Shown here piece by piece: positions 1 through 14,483 of a stretch of DNA of 14,483 nucleotides. The stretch comes from an uncultured archaeon (lineage in GTDB: Archaea > Asgardarchaeota > Thorarchaeia > Thorarchaeales > CAZPUN01): positions 1-14,483 of the forward strand of contig CAZPUN010000015.1 in the NCBI GenBank assembly GCA_964589775.1, given 5' to 3'. The notes under the pieces were generated by a model that saw only the letters and a list, made by a program, of their open reading frames with translations, was not told the DNA's origin and searched no databases. The translations under genes were made by a program, and so were the position numbers. Positions within the stretch are counted from its first letter, which is position 1. Each line of letters opens with the position of its first letter.

Positions 1-1177
1 AAGAATTCCAGAGTGAATCGATTGGAAGTTCCAAAATGCTTCCAAGACTTGTAAAGTATCTCTGACATGGAATGACCTCGCCATTGGGTTCAACTGCAAG
101 TGCAGAAAACCCAGCGTGACAGATTCTTGGTTTTAATCCCCAGTCTACAAGATCAAAGATTTCGAATGGAATCGGAGTGTACCACTTCAGCTTGATTTTG
201 TTTCTTCTTACTTTAATAATGATATCAAGCATAATGTCGTCTATATCGGATTCCGGAATTGCATACTCGGGTGGATTCGGAAGGCTATCTTTATAGAATA
301 TTCCGTTTAGCATCATGTATTTTTGACCCAATTCTACGAGATAATCAATAGTTTCATTAATATCAGGCAGGTTAATCTTTGTTAGTGTTGTATTAGTAAT
401 TGTGTAAATATCCGTATCGATAAATTCTTTCAAGCCGCGAATAGTTTCCTTCCACGCTCCTGAAACGCCTGCCATTTTGTCATGGGTCTCTTCCTTATGA
501 GAATATAGTTCTACCTGAACATAATCAATACCTGCCTTTACTAACTCATCCACTTTATCTTTTGTAAGCAATCGAGCATTCGTAATTATTCCCGTAATTA
601 TGCCAAGATCCTCAGCATGACTGATGAGTTTAGGTAGGTCTTCGCGTAGTGTTGGTTCGCCGCCTGTAAATGTAATATTTGGAATTCCCGCAGAGGATAT
701 TTTGTCTATTATTTCTATCCATTGTTCAGTAGAGAGCTCAACATCCTTATTCCATTTTAATCGTGCATCATCAAGATGGGAAAAAATGGGCGAATTATTA
801 TTCCGATAAGTAATTGCAAGGTCCATTCGTAATGGAGCACTGGGTGGTGTTGAAAATGGTTCTGTGCTCTCTATTTCATGTGCTTCGATTGGATATACAT
901 CTGGTTCTTTGACAAATTTTTTGATTTTTTCAACTAATTCTGCATAATCCTTCTTAATTGTTTCCGTATCGATTTTATATAATTTAGAAATTTCTTCAAT
1001 TGCTTTGTCTTCTGAAGCTCCTGTTAGCATTAACTTGGTGTAATGATATGCAGTATCATTTAGATAGAGAATTCGCATTGAGTCTATGACTAGCATTCCG
1101 CCTGATTTTTCCTTACGTAGAATAAAGCGATGCCCTTCTAGTTCATCGGTTCCAATGGCTCGAAAAACTTCAGACAT
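1..1177 (-). CDS. Pseudo-radical SAM/SPASM protein with N-terminal RRE (PqqD-like) region; CxxxCxxC replaced by NxxxPxxS; 3' end runs off the window
   Basis: Hand translation from ATG 1175-1177 (overlaps upstream stop as TAATG) is open to the window edge: MSEVFRAIGTDELEGHRFILRKEKSGGMLVIDSMRILYLNDTAY...APLRMDLAITYRNNNSPIFSHLD...ELSTEQW...ITFTGGEPTLREDL...IITNARLLT...KWYTP...ICHAGFSALAVEPNGEVIPCQRYFTSLGSIL. Collinear with the 4786-6111 protein throughout. Absent from the ORF track because there is no stop in the window. Confidence 0.93.
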   Translation of the reverse strand, partial: MSEVFRAIGTDELEGHRFILRKEKSGGMLVIDSMRILYLNDTAYHYTKLMLTGASEDKAIEEISKLYKIDTETIKKDYAELVEKIKKFVKEPDVYPIEAHEIESTEPFSTPPSAPLRMDLAITYRNNNSPIFSHLDDARLKWNKDVELSTEQWIEIIDKISSAGIPNITFTGGEPTLREDLPKLISHAEDLGIITGIITNARLLTKDKVDELVKAGIDYVQVELYSHKEETHDKMAGVSGAWKETIRGLKEFIDTDIYTITNTTLTKINLPDINETIDYLVELGQKYMMLNGIFYKDSLPNPPEYAIPESDIDDIMLDIIIKVRRNKIKLKWYTPIPFEIFDLVDWGLKPRICHAGFSALAVEPNGEVIPCQRYFTSLGSILELPIDSLWNS

Positions 1178-2835
1178 TAACGACCACCTCCAGCACAGGC
1201 ACATGCACAACTTGCACAGGCACACGCGCATGAGCCGCCATGACCACCACTACTTGGCGCTGGATTGAATAGATTTACAATGGCATCGGCAATTCCTGCA
1301 AATCCTGCTACAGCTGTATTTGCAAACCCTTCAACCCCTGATACAAATGAGTCTGCAAAGTTTGATATGGATGGGATTTCTGTTTTTCCACTTGGAGAGG
1401 GTAATTGGGAAAAACTGCTTTTGCTCCTGTGAATACCCCTAGATCTATAACTTGTCCTATGGATAGACATATACCATGGAGGTACATAAACAACGTCCAA
1501 ACCGCTTGCATATTTCTTGGGCTTATCTGCAGCTAATAGCCATTCAGCATATTCATTGAATGCTTTCTGTTGGACTACCGGTTCCTCTGCAGATGCAATT
1601 TCTCTGAATGCGCGCTCAATTATTTTCTTATAATATTCCTTTGTCTTATCTCTGGAATAGCCTTCCATCTTCTCTGCAACTGTCTCAATTAGAAGAATAA
1701 GAGCATCTTCGACTCGCTTTTTATTAATGGTGCCGTTATCATTAATTGCCTTTAATAATGCACGTTCATAGTATCTTGCTCTTGCCTGCTTGAGATCTAC
1801 ATTTTTCTTAATAAACCTTGGTGGATCGCCGGGAACAACATCAATAATTCCTTTCTTAAGCATACCAAATATAATCATCGTGAAAACACGTTGTAATGGA
1901 ATTTCCATCAAAACTGCTGCCTCAACCGCTGTTAACCCTCTATGAATGCCAAGAGTTTCAGCTTTCACAGCTGGTGGCAAATATTTATTCCTACCCCTAT
2001 GATTACTAAGTGATGCCCCTAGGAGACAGAGGAAGAAAAATACCGGAAATATGAAAATCATTAAATCGTCAAAATCAATGTTTATCGGTGGGTTATATGC
2101 AGTATAATATGTAGAAACATATCTCTTAGGAAATGATATACCATAAGTAAACTGTTTGGGAGCTACATTTTCCTCACGATATATGAAAACTAACGATTGT
2201 GAATCATTCTTAATAATATCTGGAGCCTCACGATGGTAATATGATTCACTACGATTATAGAACCCTACTGGAAAATGTAAATAGGTATACATATAGTCTA
2301 CCATAAAACAAAATCCACCCGAGAACCATGTTGGTGAAAATTCATAGCCGACATAATCTTCCTTCTCGGTATCTTGGTATATCATATGCGGGTTATTACC
2401 CCAGATTACTAAGGTGCCCACTTCACCATCATGTATCTGAATACTTGCGGGAATGTGCACTTCGACCCCTATATCGATATACGTTGAAACACGAATATCT
2501 GTTAGCGTATACCAGGTTCCATCTTTGTACCATTTTGCATGAATAGAACTTAAATTGTAGTATTCATTCGGAAATCCAATGTCTATAACATCAATTGGGT
2601 CTCCATGATTCTCAAAAACAATCGTGTAATTAATATCAATAGACCCATCAGCTTTTGGATATACGTGTACTGACTCATTTCTAAGCTTGAAATAATAATC
2701 TTGTGCTAGTCTCATAGAAGTATCGGGTTTTATTATATTCTCATTATTTATTTCAGTCTGTGGCATCATTAGTATTGCCGCGGAACTTAGAAAAATGAGC
2801 GAGATTATAATAAATCCCATCCCCTTTCTTAACAT
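1177..2835 (-). CDS. Membrane protein, DUF2207/YciQ-like architecture, with C-terminal Cys-rich tail SCACACASCACACAGGGR
   Basis: N-terminal hydrophobic signal/anchor (FIIISLIFLSSAAILM), beta-rich ectodomain (VYPKADGSIDINYTIVF), TM helix (LMIFIFPVFFFLCLLGASL), cytoplasmic region (LTAVEAAVLM...MLKKGII), Ser/Gly linker and six-Cys tail. ATG at 2835 preferred over the track's GTG at 2844 because it lies 2 nt after the upstream stop. Family assignment is by resemblance only. Confidence 0.85.
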   Translation of the reverse strand: MLRKGMGFIIISLIFLSSAAILMMPQTEINNENIIKPDTSMRLAQDYYFKLRNESVHVYPKADGSIDINYTIVFENHGDPIDVIDIGFPNEYYNLSSIHAKWYKDGTWYTLTDIRVSTYIDIGVEVHIPASIQIHDGEVGTLVIWGNNPHMIYQDTEKEDYVGYEFSPTWFSGGFCFMVDYMYTYLHFPVGFYNRSESYYHREAPDIIKNDSQSLVFIYREENVAPKQFTYGISFPKRYVSTYYTAYNPPINIDFDDLMIFIFPVFFFLCLLGASLSNHRGRNKYLPPAVKAETLGIHRGLTAVEAAVLMEIPLQRVFTMIIFGMLKKGIIDVVPGDPPRFIKKNVDLKQARARYYERALLKAINDNGTINKKRVEDALILLIETVAEKMEGYSRDKTKEYYKKIIERAFREIASAEEPVVQQKAFNEYAEWLLAADKPKKYASGLDVVYVPPWYMSIHRTSYRSRGIHRSKSSFSQLPSPSGKTEIPSISNFADSFVSGVEGFANTAVAGFAGIADAIVNLFNPAPSSGGHGGSCACACASCACACAGGGR

Positions 2836-2837
2836 CT

Positions 2838-3200
2838 TTACCACTTCACATCTTCAACCATTTGATATACTGCGCCACAATATGGACATGTAACAGTAAT
2901 TGTACCCGTATTAGGATCAAAATGTAATGACTTCTTTGTTAGTTTCCCTCCACATTCCTTGCATTTTAGCTGTTCTAGGTCAATGCTCGGAGGTAACTCA
3001 ACTGTTGCCTTGACCTCATAGACAGCTTTCGTCTTCATGCGTGTTATGACAATCATCACTATAGATACAACTACTAGGATACTGCCTGTAATTAATCTTG
3101 GAACTGTATTCTGCACTGGAGCCGCCAGAAGGTACATTGCTCCAAAAAACATCAAGATTGATGCTATACAATAAAGCAAATAGCCTATCTTCTCGTTCAT
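2838..3200 (-). CDS. Small membrane protein with two TM helices and a C-terminal zinc ribbon
   Basis: Two hydrophobic helices then CKECGG...CPYCG. ATG at 3200 (MNEKIG) preferred over TTG at 3218. Stop abuts the start of the next gene, consistent with an operon. Confidence 0.85.
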   Translation of the reverse strand: MNEKIGYLLYCIASILMFFGAMYLLAAPVQNTVPRLITGSILVVVSIVMIVITRMKTKAVYEVKATVELPPSIDLEQLKCKECGGKLTKKSLHFDPNTGTITVTCPYCGAVYQMVEDVKW

Positions 3201-3534
3201 AGGATAACTATAGCACAAATAAGAATATGAATTTTTGCATCTTTTATTTGAGCATTTTTATATTATACACTAACAAAATAAGAAATCTATAGATATAAGT
3301 GTTTAAATTCAACATGAGAGAGTATCAACTTAACTTACATTCTTGCTCTGATAGTTTTTATGCAAAGCAAAATTCAATTAATTATCAAATATCTACTTTC
3401 ATTTTAAATTCATATCATATTTTTTTATTTGAAACATTCTTAATTATATTAATTAAATTGTTTTAAAACTCAAGAATCATATTATTTAAAAGAAAAAAAT
3501 CTAATATTCTATAATGTAAGTAGGAGGAGAATAT

Positions 3535-4770
3535 ATGGCTATTAATATGAAGAACACTAATGTTCGTGTAGCTTTAACACTTGTTTTTTTAATATCACTC
3601 TCTCAACTTTCGCTAATGGCGAATGCTAACATTTTTGGAATTCCAACAGATCTAGAAACCGCTCATGGAATTGTTTATTATAATGAGTATCCTTTCCAAT
3701 ATAGATGGGTAAATACACATAAGCTGAATTTATTAGGTCTAAATAATTATGCAATCGGTTGGGAATCAATTTACAATATGGTTCAACTCTTCGGTATTAA
3801 TTCGACGGATCAAATAGTTGTTGCAAACACATTAATTGGATTGGAAATATATAAAGACGCAAACAATAATAGTATTATTGATGCGGACTATGAAGACGCA
3901 AGTACTGAGTGTATGTATTTCTTAACTATAATTGATTATAGTGATTTTATAAATGAAGGCCCACATAAAGAGTCTAATAACGTTTATACATGGAAAACAA
4001 GAATTGTGAATCCAGAATTCATGGGAAATTACGACTATATATATGGGCCAACAAATCCTGGGAGTATTAATATCACATTTGATTATATAGAATTCAATTA
4101 TAGATACTTTGAAGTGACAACGGAATTACAGACATATCAAGTAGTAAGATTAAATATAAAAATTGGAGCGGTAAATCAATCAACTATTAAAACTTCAAGT
4201 GGTGTCTCCAATTTTGAGATTCCTGATTCTTGGAGTTTATCCTTGCTATATTCATTATCATTATCACTAGTACAATGCTCTAAAGTTTCCGAATCTGTGA
4301 AGTATCGACTACAATATGTCAAGTTCGGATATATCAACAATTACTTCTTTAAGATTGAATTTTCTAATAATTATACGTATATTGAAAATAAAACAGCAGT
4401 AAGTTACCCCACTCATTGTATATATACAAAACCAAATGCAATAAATGAAGATCTAAAACAGATGAGTTCATATTCTAATGCATTACAAGGATTAATCAAC
4501 GCATTTATGACTCAATTATATCACAAATCATTACAAGTAAATATAGACGCAGATTCTTCTACATATTGCTATAGGTCTGAATATCCAATTTGGAAAGCCT
4601 CGGAGATTAATCATAATATAACATTTGTAATCTTTGATATAAACTCTACTACAAGTATATATGCAAATGTATTTTACGAGCGCGCAATATTAATCACAAT
4701 CCCGTGTATTAGTATAAGCGTGGCAATAATAATTTATAGTATGAAGAAGAGGAAAATCAAAGCATCTTAA
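3535..4770 (+). CDS. Secreted, C-terminally anchored hypothetical surface protein
   Basis: RBS GGAGGAGA 4 nt before ATG; N-terminal signal peptide (VALTLVFLISLSQLSLMANA); several N-x-S/T sequons; C-terminal TM helix (AILITIPCISISVAIIIY) followed by basic tail KKRKIKAS. Confidence 0.85.
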   Translation: MAINMKNTNVRVALTLVFLISLSQLSLMANANIFGIPTDLETAHGIVYYNEYPFQYRWVNTHKLNLLGLNNYAIGWESIYNMVQLFGINSTDQIVVANTLIGLEIYKDANNNSIIDADYEDASTECMYFLTIIDYSDFINEGPHKESNNVYTWKTRIVNPEFMGNYDYIYGPTNPGSINITFDYIEFNYRYFEVTTELQTYQVVRLNIKIGAVNQSTIKTSSGVSNFEIPDSWSLSLLYSLSLSLVQCSKVSESVKYRLQYVKFGYINNYFFKIEFSNNYTYIENKTAVSYPTHCIYTKPNAINEDLKQMSSYSNALQGLINAFMTQLYHKSLQVNIDADSSTYCYRSEYPIWKASEINHNITFVIFDINSTTSIYANVFYERAILITIPCISISVAIIIYSMKKRKIKAS

Positions 4771-4785: not shown

Positions 4786-6111
4786 TTATTTTGTTTTGTC
4801 AAGAACAATTTTAATTGGTTTTGGCTTTACTTGTGTGGAATATAATGGACAGCCAGCACCACAAAAGTTGAAAAGTTCACATTCTCTACATTCTTTTGGT
4901 GCCCATTCATGACCTCTGATACTTTTTGCCAGTGGATGATCCCATATTGAATCCCATGAGTCTTTGAGGATGTTTCCAAGTGGTGAAAAGTAGCTCTGGC
5001 AGGGTATAACGTCTCCATTCGGTTCAATTCCCATACTAGAATAGGCGGCACTGCATCGCTTAGTTCCAAGCCCATACTCAAGGGGATTAAAATGGCAATA
5101 CCAAGTCGGAGTATACCATATCATTTTCATTTTGAGAGGTCTAGAGGTCATTAGTATATCTAGTATAAGGTCGTCCAGTTCGTCTTCAGGAATTCCAATT
5201 TCATTCGCAACTGCTATGCCAGATCCAGAATAAATTAAGCCATTCATCGCAAAATCTTTTTGTCCTATAGAATGCAGGAATTTAACAAGATCTGTCGCAG
5301 TATGTTTATTTATTTGAGTTAGCGTCGTATTTGTAAGAATGTACATTCCTTTTCCTTGAGAATTCTTTATGCCATTAACTGTTTCTTGCCATGCCCCTTT
5401 TACACCAACCATACGGTCATGAATTTCAGGATCTGAGGACTCTAAAGTAATCTGTATATAGTCTAAACCTGCCTTAGACAGAGCATCAGCAAATTCCGAA
5501 GTTAGTAATCGGCCATTAGTAATGAGACCCGAATACATTCCAAGATCTTCGGCATATTTTATCAATTCAATAAGGTCCTTGCGGAGAGGGGCTTCACCGC
5601 CAGTAAATGTAACGTGTGGAACGCCAACTTCAATTAGTCTATCTAGAACCTTTTTCCACTGCTCAGTACTCAATTCCTTGGATTTAGGCCATGCTCTTCG
5701 TTCGGAATCTACATAACAATGTGAGCAAAAATTATTACATCGATAAGTTAATGCAAGATCAACTCTATAAGGTGCAGAAGGCTCATGAGTGAATGGAAGA
5801 ACTTCCTCAAAGCCAAGGTCTGTTGGATAGATCTCAGGATGCCGAATATAATCAAGAATCTTATTCTTAAAATCCGTAAAATCCTGCCGAATACGATTTT
5901 CGTCTTGTTTGAATCGCTTTGCAACACCTTCTATTATACGTTCGTCAGATTCGCCTTCTATAATTCCTTTGGCAAAATAATATGCGGAGTCGTTCAAAAA
6001 TAGCAAACGTATTGCATCAATTACCAGGACCCCACCATGTTTATCCCTGCGAAGAATAAAACGATGATTTTTCAAGTCATCTTTTCCAATTTTAAGCTCA
6101 ATTTTAGTCAA
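4786..6111 (-). CDS. Radical SAM/SPASM-domain maturase (PqqE/AlbA-like) with N-terminal RRE (PqqD-like) region
   Basis: CNNFCSHC (C125/C129/C132, nt 5716-5739), FTGGE, LITNG, SPASM cysteines CSAA...GDVIPC...CRECELFNFCGAGC; N-terminal beta-strands then LNDSA plus helices, as in RRE folds. TTG start preceded by GGAGGCGA. Confidence 0.95.
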   Translation of the reverse strand: MTKIELKIGKDDLKNHRFILRRDKHGGVLVIDAIRLLFLNDSAYYFAKGIIEGESDERIIEGVAKRFKQDENRIRQDFTDFKNKILDYIRHPEIYPTDLGFEEVLPFTHEPSAPYRVDLALTYRCNNFCSHCYVDSERRAWPKSKELSTEQWKKVLDRLIEVGVPHVTFTGGEAPLRKDLIELIKYAEDLGMYSGLITNGRLLTSEFADALSKAGLDYIQITLESSDPEIHDRMVGVKGAWQETVNGIKNSQGKGMYILTNTTLTQINKHTATDLVKFLHSIGQKDFAMNGLIYSGSGIAVANEIGIPEDELDDLILDILMTSRPLKMKMIWYTPTWYCHFNPLEYGLGTKRCSAAYSSMGIEPNGDVIPCQSYFSPLGNILKDSWDSIWDHPLAKSIRGHEWAPKECRECELFNFCGAGCPLYSTQVKPKPIKIVLDKTK

Positions 6112-6485: not shown

Positions 6486-6537
6486 AATTAAGAAATAATT
6501 TAAATATAATAATATAAAACAAAGAATGGTGATATTA

Positions 6538-7014
6538 ATGGCATTATATGCTATAATTAAAACTGAAAAGGGAGACATAGAAATCGAACTTCAACCTCAA
6601 GAGGCTCCAAAGGCTGTCGCAAGTTTTGTTTTTCTGGCAAAGAAGGGCTTTTTCGACGGGCTAACATTTCATAGAGTTGTACCGAATTTTGTAATTCAAG
6701 GTGGAGACCCCTTGGGAAATGGACGCGGTGGTCCTAGAGATGTCGGAATAAAATCATTCCCATTTGAAGGTAAGGAAATTCCGTATCCTTTTGAAGATGA
6801 ATGGCATAGCTTATCATATGACCGTCCGGGAATCGTCGGAATGGCAAATGCAGGACCTAATACCAATGGGAGTCAATTCTTCATAACGCATAGAGCAACC
6901 CCACACTTAACAAAGAAACACTCGATTTTTGGAATCGTAACAAAAGGTATGGATGTCGTAAATGCGATAAAGCAGGGCGATAAAATGCTTAAAGTTATTA
7001 TAGAAGAGAGATAG
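6538..7014 (+). CDS. ppi: Cyclophilin-type peptidyl-prolyl cis-trans isomerase
   Basis: FDGLTFHRVVPNFVIQGGDP, GMANAGPNTNGSQFFIT and PHL..KHSIFG motifs. ATG 6538 has GGTGAT 4 nt upstream; the track start at 6526 is an alternative. TTTAAA box at 6498-6503. Confidence 0.96.
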   Translation: MALYAIIKTEKGDIEIELQPQEAPKAVASFVFLAKKGFFDGLTFHRVVPNFVIQGGDPLGNGRGGPRDVGIKSFPFEGKEIPYPFEDEWHSLSYDRPGIVGMANAGPNTNGSQFFITHRATPHLTKKHSIFGIVTKGMDVVNAIKQGDKMLKVIIEER

Positions 7015-7036: not shown

Positions 7037-8530
7037 TTACGCCAATATTTGTCTCAGGAATTCTGGACACTTTTCTACTTTACTTCCAAAAGAGTAGAAC
7101 AAATCATTTACAATTGGATTTTCCAAATTTAGCATATATGCAAAAAATCTTTGTTTGGTAAATACCCGTTGAAGGAATTTGTTTTTACAAAGAAAATCAA
7201 AGACATGCGAATTTCTAATTTCGTCTTTCTTATAGTATTTATTCAATATTTCATAGTTTTTAATAGAGTTACATTTTATCTTCGATTTTCGTATCGTATT
7301 GTATATCAACCACGCTTTACTCTTGGAAAGAGCACCAAATGTTCTAACTAATTTTTGATAATCATGAGCTTTTAATGCATGAAAATATATAATCAATAGT
7401 TGAATTATTGCAAAATGTATTGATTTCAAGTTAATGATCTCTTGTTGCGGTTCATCGATCATATTATTCATTATCTCACTTACTATTTCATCACGGGACT
7501 CAAAAATTAATGATTTCTCAAATGCATTTAATTGTGAGATGTATTTTGTGAATTTTTCAGTGAGTTGTACATATCGGGGTTTATATTTTAGATATTTTGT
7601 AATTTCTTCATAACAAATTGCGGTATCATGCGGGAGAATCCCACCAATCTCATAATAAAGTGGATTCAATGAACCATATATTAAGTAAATTATATTTCTT
7701 AAGAATTTAATTGATTTTTCTACGGATTGGTCTATATTTATACTAGAATCGTTGGACTTTTTTACGAAATGTTTTGTATTCCTACCTTTAATAAAATACG
7801 AATTTGCATGAGTCAATATATAATACATAATATAAAAGTGACTCACTGCAAGTTGTGCCCCAAAAACGATTTTATACTTATTTTGATAATGTTTGTTAGA
7901 TATATTTATTCTATAATATGATTGATTAATATAATTGATTTCAAAATTTTTGTCCATATTAACTTTGTTTATCTCAAAAGTATATGGGTCACTTTTTACA
8001 AATTTTATCGATTTGTCTATTCCATTCAATCCTACGTAAATATTTTGAAATTTCGCAAATTTACGATTAACAAAATCATGAATATGCAATATTTTTTTGT
8101 ATATTGGATCTTCTTCAAGATAATGAATATTAATATCGACCGGGTCTTCGAAATTTATAGAAGATGTTATTAATGCGAAACCTTGAAGGAAAACCTCAAC
8201 AGTTCCACCGATACTTCTTATGTTCTTATCGAACCACAAATTCGGATACTTGGCTTTTTTCAAATCGATATATCCTACAAATGAATATGGTGGAAAGAAC
8301 TTTGCATATATATACTGATTGAACTTGTGAACCATCTCTTTTGTCAAATATCTCTTGCGCCATTTGAACTGTGAAACATTGTTTATATAAAAGTCCTTAA
8401 TCGTATGCGTGAGTGGATCAATCTTATTATAAGTATCAATATTGCATATATATGAAATTGTTTCCTTTAGTTTTCGCCTATCGAGGATATGATCTATCAG
8501 ATTATATATTGTAATTGTCTTAAATAACAT
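7037..8530 (-). CDS. Hypothetical protein, very AT-rich, possible C-terminal winged-helix region
   Basis: 497-codon ORF, too long to be chance in AT-rich DNA; rich in I/K/N/Y/F; no catalytic motif recognised. The C-terminal helix-helix-strand-turn-strand pattern (VFDFLCKNKFLQRVFTKQRFFAYMLN) is only suggestive. Confidence 0.7.
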   Translation of the reverse strand: MLFKTITIYNLIDHILDRRKLKETISYICNIDTYNKIDPLTHTIKDFYINNVSQFKWRKRYLTKEMVHKFNQYIYAKFFPPYSFVGYIDLKKAKYPNLWFDKNIRSIGGTVEVFLQGFALITSSINFEDPVDINIHYLEEDPIYKKILHIHDFVNRKFAKFQNIYVGLNGIDKSIKFVKSDPYTFEINKVNMDKNFEINYINQSYYRINISNKHYQNKYKIVFGAQLAVSHFYIMYYILTHANSYFIKGRNTKHFVKKSNDSSINIDQSVEKSIKFLRNIIYLIYGSLNPLYYEIGGILPHDTAICYEEITKYLKYKPRYVQLTEKFTKYISQLNAFEKSLIFESRDEIVSEIMNNMIDEPQQEIINLKSIHFAIIQLLIIYFHALKAHDYQKLVRTFGALSKSKAWLIYNTIRKSKIKCNSIKNYEILNKYYKKDEIRNSHVFDFLCKNKFLQRVFTKQRFFAYMLNLENPIVNDLFYSFGSKVEKCPEFLRQILA

Positions 8531-11267: not shown

Positions 11268-12476
11268 ATGTTATATGCAGTTTGGGTAATAGACAAAGGC
11301 GGACTGCCAATTATTTCGCGTGAATATGCTAATTTTGGAATAGACTCAAGCTTGGTTTCAGGTTTTGTTGAAGCCCTCTATACGTTTGCCCTCGAACTTG
11401 GTGCAAAAGGGGTACGCGAGATAGATGCGTTATCTTTTAAATTGATTATTGAACGAAATATTGATGGTTCTTTGATCGTAATTGCTGCTGATAAGGATGA
11501 CAAAGCATCATATTATGAGGATTTTATGACAGCCATTCGAAATGAAATTCTAGATGTTTATGAAGATCTCGGAGAGAATCCTGCAGCTAAAAAGATAGTT
11601 GATTCTGTTTTTGATAGATTAATTCAGCGATATATTGTTAAGAAAAGTCCGTGGCAAGCGAAACAAGCTAAAATTATATCGAATCCGAATGTTGTTAAGC
11701 TAATCAAAATGATGATAAATGGTGAAATAAAAAAAATTACGCCTACAACATCGAAAAACACTCCCGGGTTCAATTATTCAGTTGCAGAACTCGTACTTCA
11801 TCAAGATGTGGAAGAAACTGTAAAGACCTTGGAAAAATTAGTAGATTATAGCATTTTACGAAAGAAACCCGTCATGAGCATTTTAACATGCCAGAATCGT
11901 AATGAGCCGGTCATCGTTAAACTTGTATGTCCAAAGTGCAATAAGAGTTCGCTTAGGCAAATTACAATCCTTGAACATTTTGATTGTGGTTTCATAGGAG
12001 AACTTCTGGATCCGCCTTTTGCCCGTGTAAAGCATTGCCCTAATTGTGGAGTGATTTTAAATAGAGAAGGCATAGATTATATACAACGTCGTGGATATAT
12101 TTGCGAAAATTGCGGAAGCACAATTGAAACACCAATCATAAGCTATTACTGTAGGAATCGGAATAAAACAATTAAGCCTGATGAGGCAACTGTCACTCAG
12201 ATATACGAGTATGAATTGAATGAACAATCTGTAAAAGAAACTAAATCGCTTCTGGCTTCAATTGAACTTGAAGAAGAAATTGCAAAGGCGAAGAAATATA
12301 AGAAAAAGACAAGCAAGAAATCTAGCATCCAAAAGGAAATCTTGGATCTTGAAAATCAAATTAAAATGATTGATGAGGATTTCAGGCTTGGTAAGATTTC
12401 CGCATCAGAAAGAGATAGACGATATATTGCAATTAGACGAAAAATTCGTATGCTTAGAAATGTATCTTCTGAATAA
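11268..12476 (+). CDS. Longin/roadblock-like N-terminal domain fused to a Cys-rich TackOD1-like domain and a C-terminal charged helical tail
   Basis: N-terminus MLYAVWVIDKGGLPIISREY...DSSLVSGFVEALYTFALE...VREID resembles Asgard longin-like domains; then a wHTH-like segment (LEKLVDYSILRKK) and CPKC, EHFDCG, CPNC, CENC motifs as in Thaumarchaeal output domain 1. GGTG RBS upstream, T-rich tract downstream. Confidence 0.75.
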   Translation: MLYAVWVIDKGGLPIISREYANFGIDSSLVSGFVEALYTFALELGAKGVREIDALSFKLIIERNIDGSLIVIAADKDDKASYYEDFMTAIRNEILDVYEDLGENPAAKKIVDSVFDRLIQRYIVKKSPWQAKQAKIISNPNVVKLIKMMINGEIKKITPTTSKNTPGFNYSVAELVLHQDVEETVKTLEKLVDYSILRKKPVMSILTCQNRNEPVIVKLVCPKCNKSSLRQITILEHFDCGFIGELLDPPFARVKHCPNCGVILNREGIDYIQRRGYICENCGSTIETPIISYYCRNRNKTIKPDEATVTQIYEYELNEQSVKETKSLLASIELEEEIAKAKKYKKKTSKKSSIQKEILDLENQIKMIDEDFRLGKISASERDRRYIAIRRKIRMLRNVSSE

Positions 12477-12568: not shown

Positions 12569-12642
12569 TTATGATAAAATATTATTAAATATTAGAAAAA
12601 ATAAAATTTTTAAATTAAGATATTCATGAGGTGAATTTAAAA

Positions 12643-14483
12643 ATGAAAAAAGCAATATTGCTGTTTCTCGTGCTCATAATGTTCATGAGTTCAATGGGAC
12701 AACCTCTGAATATCCATGAAGCACAAAAAAACTCGAACCCAATAACACATGTAGGAATTCCAAATCTCGTGTCCGATACAAATAGCTTTGGCGATCGAGA
12801 TGACGAATGGTGGAATGGAACCTACATGTGGCGAATACCGATTTATTTTAATGCAAGTGGATATTTTCGTGTGGATTATACCGCTAATATGGTGATTAAT
12901 TTTACAGAGAAAATGCAAGAGGTTGAACCTGGAAATTCTTGGACATTTGAAGATGGTTCTATCCGGCTGATTGAATATGATTCATCAGGAAACATAATCG
13001 GAGAAATCCCATACCAATTTGAAAAGGCAAATGATTGGGACCCAACTCACAATGCCGTCGGAACTCTTTATTGGACAGTTGATGGATATCTTGCACCTAA
13101 TGATGCTCGATACTACTACGTTTATTTCTCAGTGAATGATATATATAATCACACTGCTCCTTCATATGCAGATGATTTCATTCCTCTGACAAACTATGGT
13201 ATCGGTGCAGCGACTACATTCTATGGATATATATTTCCAACAGGTACGCCTAGAAATGTGTATGTTGTTGGTATAAATGATACAACAAATGTAAAATTCT
13301 ATGTGTGGAATTCTACAACGGAAAAATATGATTTAAGAAATGATACAAATATTAATCGAATGGATGTCGTAATATTTAGTAATTTAGATCAAAGTATCTA
13401 TTACAAAGTAGTAGCAGACAAACAAGTAGTTGTGGCACAATATAATGGTCCATATAGTACAGCATATGGTACGTTCTTCTATCCAGCTGTAAATGGTAAA
13501 ATGTCTGGAAAGGAATTTATATTTTACACATTTGATGATTATTCGCCCTACACTGTTTATTTCAGTAAAAATGCTGCCCATGTAACCGTATATGATTCAA
13601 ATAATGCCATTCTGGATAGTTTTGATATTTCAGCGGGACATTATGTAGCAAAAAACTATCCATTAGGTTATGTTTATCGCGTAGTATCTAATACAAGTAT
13701 TGTTATTCATAAGTCTGGAGGAAATGCATATACACAAGTCCCTGCTATTGATGGTGCAGCTGCTGGAAAAGAATTTTGCTTAACTCTGTCAAACTGGGCC
13801 CATTACGCTATGTATGTAATCGTTGCATTAGAAAATGCAAATGTAACTGTATATGACCTCCAAAATAATGATGCTGTTTTTGCAACACATCAGATCTCTG
13901 CCGGCAGTTACGTAATTAAAGCACCAGATGCAAATGAAATATTAAGAATTGTCTCAAATGCGACAATAATGGTATACGGAACATGTGGTGAAGGCGGAAC
14001 AACTATTAACAGACTGGGAGATGATTTTACAAATCTACTTGGTATACGTGCAAAAGAATTTTGGGCAACCCTTACAACGGACACATATAGTGATGTTGTT
14101 GTCTTTGCATATTACAATGATACAGTTGTTTCTTACAATGGAAATAATAAAAAATTAGATGCAGGTCAATTCTGGAATATCAAATTAGTTGATGATATTG
14201 GAAAAATTACTGCGGATAAACCAATTAGCATCCTTGAAAAAGGCAAAGATGGTGCATACAACGATATGGTTGCTTATATTGCAGGTATGACTCCTGAACC
14301 AAACATCACAGCTGCTACAGCACAAGAATATTACAGAATTCAAGTCCATGTGACAGACGCTGATGGAAATGCATTCCAGGGTGCAAATGTTACTCTATAT
14401 AAATCCGGTCAAAAGATTCGGTCGTTAATTACTGATGAGAACGGAAATTGTACTTTCTACAATATTAATCAGGATACGTATAC
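12643..14483 (+). CDS. Large secreted/cell-surface glycoprotein, 3' end outside the window
   Basis: Hand translation: signal peptide MKKAILLFLVLIMFMSSMG; EWWNGTYMWRIPI...YYYVYFS (DUF2341-like); repeated beta-rich units with (G/A)KEF and ADK(Q/P)/VSN motifs (IgGFc-binding N-terminal-like); VHVTDADGNAFQGANVTL...TDENG (carboxypeptidase-regulatory/Cna-B-like); many N-x-S/T sequons. Open to the window end, so missing from the ORF track. Confidence 0.9.
   Translation, partial: MKKAILLFLVLIMFMSSMGQPLNIHEAQKNSNPITHVGIPNLVSDTNSFGDRDDEWWNGTYMWRIPIYFNASGYFRVDYTANMVINFTEKMQEVEPGNSWTFEDGSIRLIEYDSSGNIIGEIPYQFEKANDWDPTHNAVGTLYWTVDGYLAPNDARYYYVYFSVNDIYNHTAPSYADDFIPLTNYGIGAATTFYGYIFPTGTPRNVYVVGINDTTNVKFYVWNSTTEKYDLRNDTNINRMDVVIFSNLDQSIYYKVVADKQVVVAQYNGPYSTAYGTFFYPAVNGKMSGKEFIFYTFDDYSPYTVYFSKNAAHVTVYDSNNAILDSFDISAGHYVAKNYPLGYVYRVVSNTSIVIHKSGGNAYTQVPAIDGAAAGKEFCLTLSNWAHYAMYVIVALENANVTVYDLQNNDAVFATHQISAGSYVIKAPDANEILRIVSNATIMVYGTCGEGGTTINRLGDDFTNLLGIRAKEFWATLTTDTYSDVVVFAYYNDTVVSYNGNNKKLDAGQFWNIKLVDDIGKITADKPISILEKGKDGAYNDMVAYIAGMTPEPNITAATAQEYYRIQVHVTDADGNAFQGANVTLYKSGQKIRSLITDENGNCTFYNINQDTY

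Follow-up and report, generated by a model that had tools for sequence, protein, structure and literature searches.

A selected pseudo-radical-SAM paralog encoded beside a Cys-Ala-tailed membrane protein in a Thorarchaeia archaeon

The window, a stretch of 14,483 nt from an uncultured archaeon of the Thorarchaeia that makes up the whole of contig C15, opens with a gene for a radical SAM paralog from which the cluster-binding CxxxCxxC motif has disappeared. An intact frame, purifying selection and the loss of catalytic residues support the conclusion that this dead copy is a real, selected pseudoenzyme. Dead copies of the same enzyme family have arisen repeatedly, which suggests a genuine helper role in a pathway around a Cys-Ala-tailed membrane protein.

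Loss of the cluster loop and of the SAM-binding residues

The gene (positions 1–1177, minus strand) runs off the start of the window and, by way of 16 in-frame nucleotides shared with the beginning of contig C10, is completed there; it is not truncated. Its 392 codons in the window and the last 48 on contig C10 encode 440 amino acids arranged as an RRE, a radical SAM barrel and a SPASM region, in a frame that is open over its full length. Counted from the ATG at 1177, residues 126–133 (779–802, minus strand) read NNNSPIFS in translation. The aligned site in the intact RRE-radical SAM-SPASM paralog encoded 3.6 kb away (4786–6111, minus strand; motif at 5716–5739), hereafter the live twin, reads CNNFCSHC. 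The two proteins are 44% identical over 392 aa and the loop aligns without a gap, that is, without an indel. The substitutions C>N126, C>P130 and C>S133 named in the initial annotation are thus correct, with a two-base difference at each cysteine codon. Among the 120 best homologs of the dead copy, 119 have the motif and only its ortholog P0001 lacks it, and the three motif cysteines are 100% conserved across 72 intact family members; a chance loss of the motif is therefore unlikely.

Much of the remaining protein is preserved, as had been noticed earlier. The N-terminal domain (residues 15–100; 878–1135) is PqqD/RRE-like, with a Pfam PF05402 match (E 1e-4) slightly below the family cut-off and 9 of 11 family-invariant residues kept. 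The GGEP motif is present at 653–664, as it is in every dead lineage, and the barrel scores 73.8 bits against PF04055 (cut-off 29.5). The first two SPASM cysteines, Cys353 (119–121) and Cys371 (65–67), are likewise in place within 65–121, and Cys411, Cys417, Cys422 and Cys433 follow on contig C10. The CxxCx5Cx3C arrangement expected from the completed gene did not hold: the sequence has C-x5-C-x4-C-x10-C instead. The seven-cysteine SPASM motif (C-x9-15-G-x4-C ... CxxCx5Cx3C ... C) is thus incomplete, with six cysteines, the CxxC lacking its first cysteine and one residue being inserted ahead of the third; PF13186 passes on the first part of the region.

The 72 intact enzymes share 103 near-invariant positions; both dead orthologs retain 74 of them, and the losses are clustered. 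They fall in the cluster loop, the ribose site after strand 4, the strand-6 motif, the linker cysteine (now Glu) and the first cysteine of CxxC; the RRE, the GGE motif, the greater part of the barrel and three cysteines of the first cluster are kept. At the position after strand 4 (503–511), which aligns with S-I-D of SkfB, the family T-L-E has become E-L-Y, the E and Y being the same in the ortholog; the S-I-D stretch is the ribose motif. The strand-6 motif I-Y-S-G (287–298) reads F-Y-K-D in both orthologs. Glu339 (161–163) stands in place of a cysteine conserved in 97% of intact enzymes, the probable fourth ligand of auxiliary cluster I. An AF2 model of the ortholog (pLDDT 86) shows the RRE-barrel-SPASM fold, with SkfB (E 9e-17) and SuiB as the nearest folds.

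Measured against a catalytic radical SAM enzyme, the dead copy has the partial TIM barrel, has no CxxxCxxC, and of the SAM-binding motifs retains GGE with the ribose and strand-6 motifs replaced. On sequence grounds, canonical radical chemistry is precluded. Some residual chemistry, SAM cleavage or another reaction, could be imagined at a non-canonical cluster such as the C-x5-C-x4-C set, given that GGE and most of the barrel are retained and that radical SAM enzymes with other cysteine spacings exist (ThiC, HmdB). We consider this very improbable. The completed protein has only six cysteines (353, 371, 411, 417, 422 and 433), all in the SPASM region, and since none lies before residue 353 there is no alternative cysteine set in the barrel; moreover, in both orthologs bulky residues occupy the sites of the ribose and strand-6 motifs.

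Selection on the dead copy and its distribution

The ortholog of the dead copy, 73–75% identical, shows the same motif loss (loop NNNKPIVT) and the gene order of the window in four other assemblies, all of the sister species, and this shared loss rules out an assembly error. Two further sequence sources were compared: a Logan assembly of what is probably the source run, not independent of the window assembly, is base-identical over 1–4443, and a run from a second study gave identical pieces at 503–776, none spanning 779–802. No RNA data set was listed as containing the sequence.

Between the two species, the dead copy has a pS of 0.75 (saturated), a pN of 0.17 and a pN/pS of at most 0.22 (95% 0.18–0.27); with corrected dS saturated, the between-species dN/dS is an upper bound only. 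The corresponding pN/pS values are 0.23 for the membrane protein, 0.15 for the live twin, and 0.55 and 0.63 for two other neighbours. Within the sister species, pN/pS is 0.05–0.06 for four pairs and 0.18 for one. The constraint is unevenly spread: the core is more relaxed in the dead copy than in the live twin (ortholog identity 73% versus 85%, p=0.003), and the RRE is not relaxed (79% in the dead copy, 76% in the live twin).

The lineage is narrowly distributed. A profile search returned one cluster at 50% identity from two species, and pattern scans of genome and metagenome contigs found no further orthologs. This narrowness would suit a young pseudogene or an assembly error, an explanation to which we give almost no credence: the frame has stayed open despite saturated synonymous sites, the same substitutions occur in four other assemblies, and pN/pS is far below 1. 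Neither decay nor error accounts for an ortholog that shares both loss and synteny at saturated synonymous sites and low pN/pS. Among the non-biochemical signs that could have spoken against a functional gene, we found no cysteine-keeping orthologs, no frameshifts, no dN/dS near 1 and no assembly error at 779–802.

The membrane-protein cassette and the repeated origin of dead copies

Upstream of the dead copy lies the gene for a DUF2207-like membrane protein of 555 aa (1177–2844, minus strand), whose topology, based on hydropathy and a structure model, comprises an anchor at the N-terminus, an external beta domain, a single TM helix (258–280) and a helical domain in the cytoplasm (about residues 285–555). 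Its stop codon overlaps the start of the dead copy (TAATG), and the two genes are translationally coupled. The protein ends in a Cys-Ala repeat tail of 17 residues closing with GGGR (1180–1230, minus strand), which is near-invariant, disordered and predicted to be cytoplasmic, and which is a candidate substrate or ligand. Long Cys-Ala repeat ORFs occur nowhere else in the genome, and no small precursor peptide, such as the leader-core peptides that receive Cys thioether links in sactipeptide/ranthipeptide systems, was identified in the cassette. Modification of this tail by the live enzyme is putative, and its alternating cysteines could equally be a metal site. The membrane protein is a distant DUF2207/TIGR04222 relative, with weak matches to TIGR04222 and DUF2207 in 7 and 3, respectively, of 44 family members. 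Further upstream, a small two-TM protein with a Zn ribbon is encoded (2838–3200, minus strand).

When the tailed membrane protein was modelled, its best structural match was ribophorin I/Ost1 of the eukaryotic oligosaccharyltransferase (E 2e-9, 11–13% identity, TM 0.25), followed by the N-terminal beta domains of M1 aminopeptidases. Like the window protein, Ost1 has a beta domain outside the membrane, a single TM helix and helices on the cytoplasmic side, a likeness that may reflect only a shared fold. The sister species encodes a further membrane paralog, whose Cys-Ala tail is shorter, between a 425-aa gene and the Zn gene (L032:6143-7852); it was not found in the genome of the window.

Elsewhere in the window, two unannotated genes (3535–4770 and 7037–8530) are syntenic in the sister species, with 37–38% identity versus 75–95% for their neighbours, among them a cyclophilin (6526–7014) at 95%. 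A 402-aa protein (11268–12476), whose N-terminus looks longin/roadblock-like on visual inspection and which carries a TackOD1 domain (PF18551, E 5e-23), is probably a signalling protein, and positions 12631–14483 encode the first part of a large secreted protein containing Ig-like domains. A bacterial promoter scan, a method ill suited to an archaeon, stayed at chance level.

The membrane protein is encoded in more than 500 stretches of species-level genomes. The best 80 of these loci, which are related and often on short contigs so that their counts are descriptive, contain the Zn gene in 74 cases, the intact enzyme in 66 and a dead copy in 36. All 36 dead copies belong to Chloroflexota, whose cultured carriers include Bellilinea caldifistulae and Leptolinea sp. 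HRD-7; 35 have a live twin in the locus and the remaining one sits at a contig end. A live enzyme without a dead copy is found in 31 of the 80 loci, within the DNA of each locus. A phylum survey of 400 genomes, covering the archaeon's own phylum, gave 86 matching at E<=1e-60, a threshold at which weaker copies could have been missed; 84 of the 86 show one copy and 2 show two, and all 44 single-copy loci read are intact.

Several arrangements depart from that of the window. Relatives of the same order (L126-L136) have a single intact enzyme and a membrane protein of 720–750 aa with a CHSA-repeat tail instead of a CA repeat. A second Asgard lineage (L181:1-5200, G230:C572), the other two-copy case of the phylum survey, shows the order tailed protein, dead copy, live copy, with a separate origin. 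Two further loci are rearranged (L110:11470-17009 and L122:11551-17834), the dead copy lying directly behind the tailed protein, and the live enzyme and a short paralog without a tail being encoded on the other strand. In bacterial loci a methyltransferase accompanies 30 of 36 dead copies versus 12 of 44 other loci; its sole close homolog in the archaeon studied here (31% identity) is unlinked, at G000:C56:12183-12857.

In a tree built with the motif columns masked, the dead copy of the window and its ortholog group within the intact enzymes of archaea (99/97), apart from the Chloroflexota dead clade. A single origin of the dead copies is rejected (AU p=2.5e-8); parsimony requires six changes and well-supported branches at least four, the tree's long branches leaving the exact number of origins soft. 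The sister relation of dead and live copies is left unsettled by the tree (93/76). All dead lineages keep 7–11 of the 11 RRE invariants and 0–1 of the 6 loop invariants, with no cysteine pattern in the loop. The part retained throughout the dead copies is the peptide-binding domain. The Chloroflexota dead paralog, from the same enzyme family and cassette, resembles the archaeal copy in keeping the RRE and GGE and lacking the loop; its origin is separate, and it has lost all SPASM cysteines and much of strands 4–6, whereas the archaeal copy is full length, has six cysteines and lies directly behind the membrane gene. The proposal in the initial annotation of a selected non-catalytic subunit rather than a decaying pseudogene is supported by these repeated origins together with the open frame, the ortholog with the same loss, purifying selection and the loss of the SAM pocket.

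Two other dead lineages (L041:5822-8460, L183:7012-9764 and L185:1672-4754) are translationally coupled to tail-less membrane paralogs, and no live twin was found within their loci. This arrangement is one argument for a structural or regulatory subunit, which would bind the membrane protein at its cytoplasmic domain irrespective of the state of the tail (stabilising the protein, shielding thiols or competing with the live enzyme) and would have no part in catalysis. Such a subunit would also suit the slot directly behind the membrane gene, which the dead copy occupies here and which in Ranarchaeia is held by the intact enzyme, followed by a methyltransferase. We regard it as a possible, if rather unlikely, explanation: where the cassette includes a tailed protein, a live twin almost always adjoins the dead copy, and the archaeal lineage has kept six SPASM cysteines under selection.

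Known systems and the proposed role

Pseudo-radical-SAM proteins are a known kind, and TrnD, in which the motif is still present, is the nearest worked case. In thuricin CD biosynthesis, complex formation between TrnC and TrnD depends on their RREs; TrnD remains functional when its CxxxCxxC is mutated, but not when two of its auxiliary cysteines are removed (PMC12093266). The pair of the window resembles TrnC/TrnD in having two paralogous radical SAM proteins per cluster, in one of which the SAM cluster is dispensable and the RRE and auxiliary cysteines matter. Unlike the dead copy, TrnD keeps CxxxCxxC and cleaves SAM, and the substrates of TrnC/TrnD are small free peptides; here the motif was lost naturally, a membrane protein of 555 aa provides the candidate substrate in its tail, and the complex is putative.

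Radical SAM homologs without cluster cysteines that adjoin an intact one are also represented by two curated families: TIGR04347, a haloarchaeal pseudo-SAM/SPASM family that keeps its SPASM cysteines, and TIGR04150, the pseudo-rSAM of the GG-Bacteroidales system. Against TIGR04347, the dead copy scores 102.6 bits (cut-off 525) and the live twin higher, 136.8. TIGR04150, paired with TIGR04148 (PMC4573289), is not among the 25 best matches of the dead copy, and the neighbouring genes differ from those of the GG-Bacteroidales system, with its GG-leader precursor and TIGR04148 partner. By these comparisons the dead copy belongs to neither family and represents a different cassette of independent origin. 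SkfB, SuiB, PqqE and CteB share its domain order and fold and are its best sequence and structure matches, but it lacks their SAM cluster and falls below every family cut-off. As for the membrane protein, TIGR04222/DUF2207 proteins with Gly/Ser/Cys-rich tails have been proposed as MNIO-linked modification targets, with tails predicted to be periplasmic (PMC12452194). The window protein likewise has a low-complexity cysteine tail as the proposed target; its partner, however, is a radical SAM pair and its tail is predicted to be cytoplasmic.

Literature searches, conducted largely outside subscription papers, returned nothing relevant on the cassette, the tail motif, a SPASM pseudoenzyme or heterodimer, DUF2207 with radical SAM, or an Asgard RiPP; term searches of PMC10288494 and PMC7159879 yielded no passage on the cassette system. 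Pseudo-radical-SAM proteins are catalogued, and these searches brought up no experimental test of their function.

Which of the roles suggested earlier the dead copy plays (presenter, heterodimer partner, Fe-S scaffold or reader of the modified tail) we infer rather than observe. Our best reading, which we hold with slightly better than even confidence, is that the dead copy, itself non-catalytic, binds the tailed protein, the live twin or both, and would thereby aid tail modification as TrnD does. A maturase of the RRE-radical SAM-SPASM type would have been duplicated in the cassette, one copy giving up radical chemistry and being retained as a binding subunit. With its RRE and barrel this subunit would dock onto the membrane protein's cytoplasmic domain, the live twin or both, holding the tail while the live twin installs cysteine thioether links, as TrnD does for TrnC. 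More speculatively, the cysteine sets 353/371/422 and 411/417/433 may carry open-site clusters that grip tail thiolates.

Selection, a relaxed core with a constrained RRE, at least four losses, the live twin beside 35 of 36 dead copies, the matching gene order in a second Asgard lineage and the TrnC/TrnD precedent all argue for the partner reading; the intact RRE and the co-occurrence with a live paralog are what a TrnD-like partner should show. Against it, the dead copy is dispensable in most lineages, as the single-copy genomes of the phylum survey (84 of 86) and the live-only loci (31 of 80) attest. A complex prediction for the live twin and dead copy of the sister species scored 0.04, where the mark is 0.32, and carries no weight either way. 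Since two dead lineages couple to tail-less membrane proteins without a live twin in their loci, tail presentation is not the sole role, and for the same adjacency the idea of a reader of the modified tail is weakened.

An Fe-S protein proper has also to be weighed, that is, an electron-transfer, cluster-carrier or redox/metal-sensing subunit that uses its auxiliary clusters and perhaps completes auxiliary cluster II of the live twin through its terminal cysteine. Both species keep the six SPASM cysteines, and the losses complement each other: the terminal SPASM cysteine, present in the dead copy and in 113 of 118 homologs, is missing from the live twin, and the dead copy lacks two others. Five other intact homologs, however, are likewise without the terminal cysteine, and the altered C-terminus is modelled at low confidence in the ortholog (pLDDT <50 at 406–425). 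The Chloroflexota dead clade, having lost every SPASM cysteine, shows that a pure Fe-S scaffold is not the general role and offers no shared reason for the repeated origins. We judge an Fe-S role improbable.

The partner reading can be taken further, to a proposal that we consider doubtful. The system would hold a permanent non-catalytic role open to a duplicated maturase, which would have led to the at least four origins, and the archaeal copy would be a TrnD-like obligate partner at an intermediate stage, with two open-site auxiliary clusters holding the tail and cysteine losses complementing those of the live twin.

To the known pseudo-radical-SAM proteins this locus adds an independent origin within the archaea, a form with six auxiliary-cluster cysteines retained, and the convergence of dead copies; the dead copies beside tail-less membrane proteins are also new. 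Together they form a graded natural series, from a single live enzyme through a dead copy with auxiliary cysteines and one without (Chloroflexota) to a dead copy beside a tail-less protein, which makes the partner function and the domain responsible for it directly testable. The locus points to radical modification of the tail of a whole membrane protein in archaea and anaerobic bacteria.
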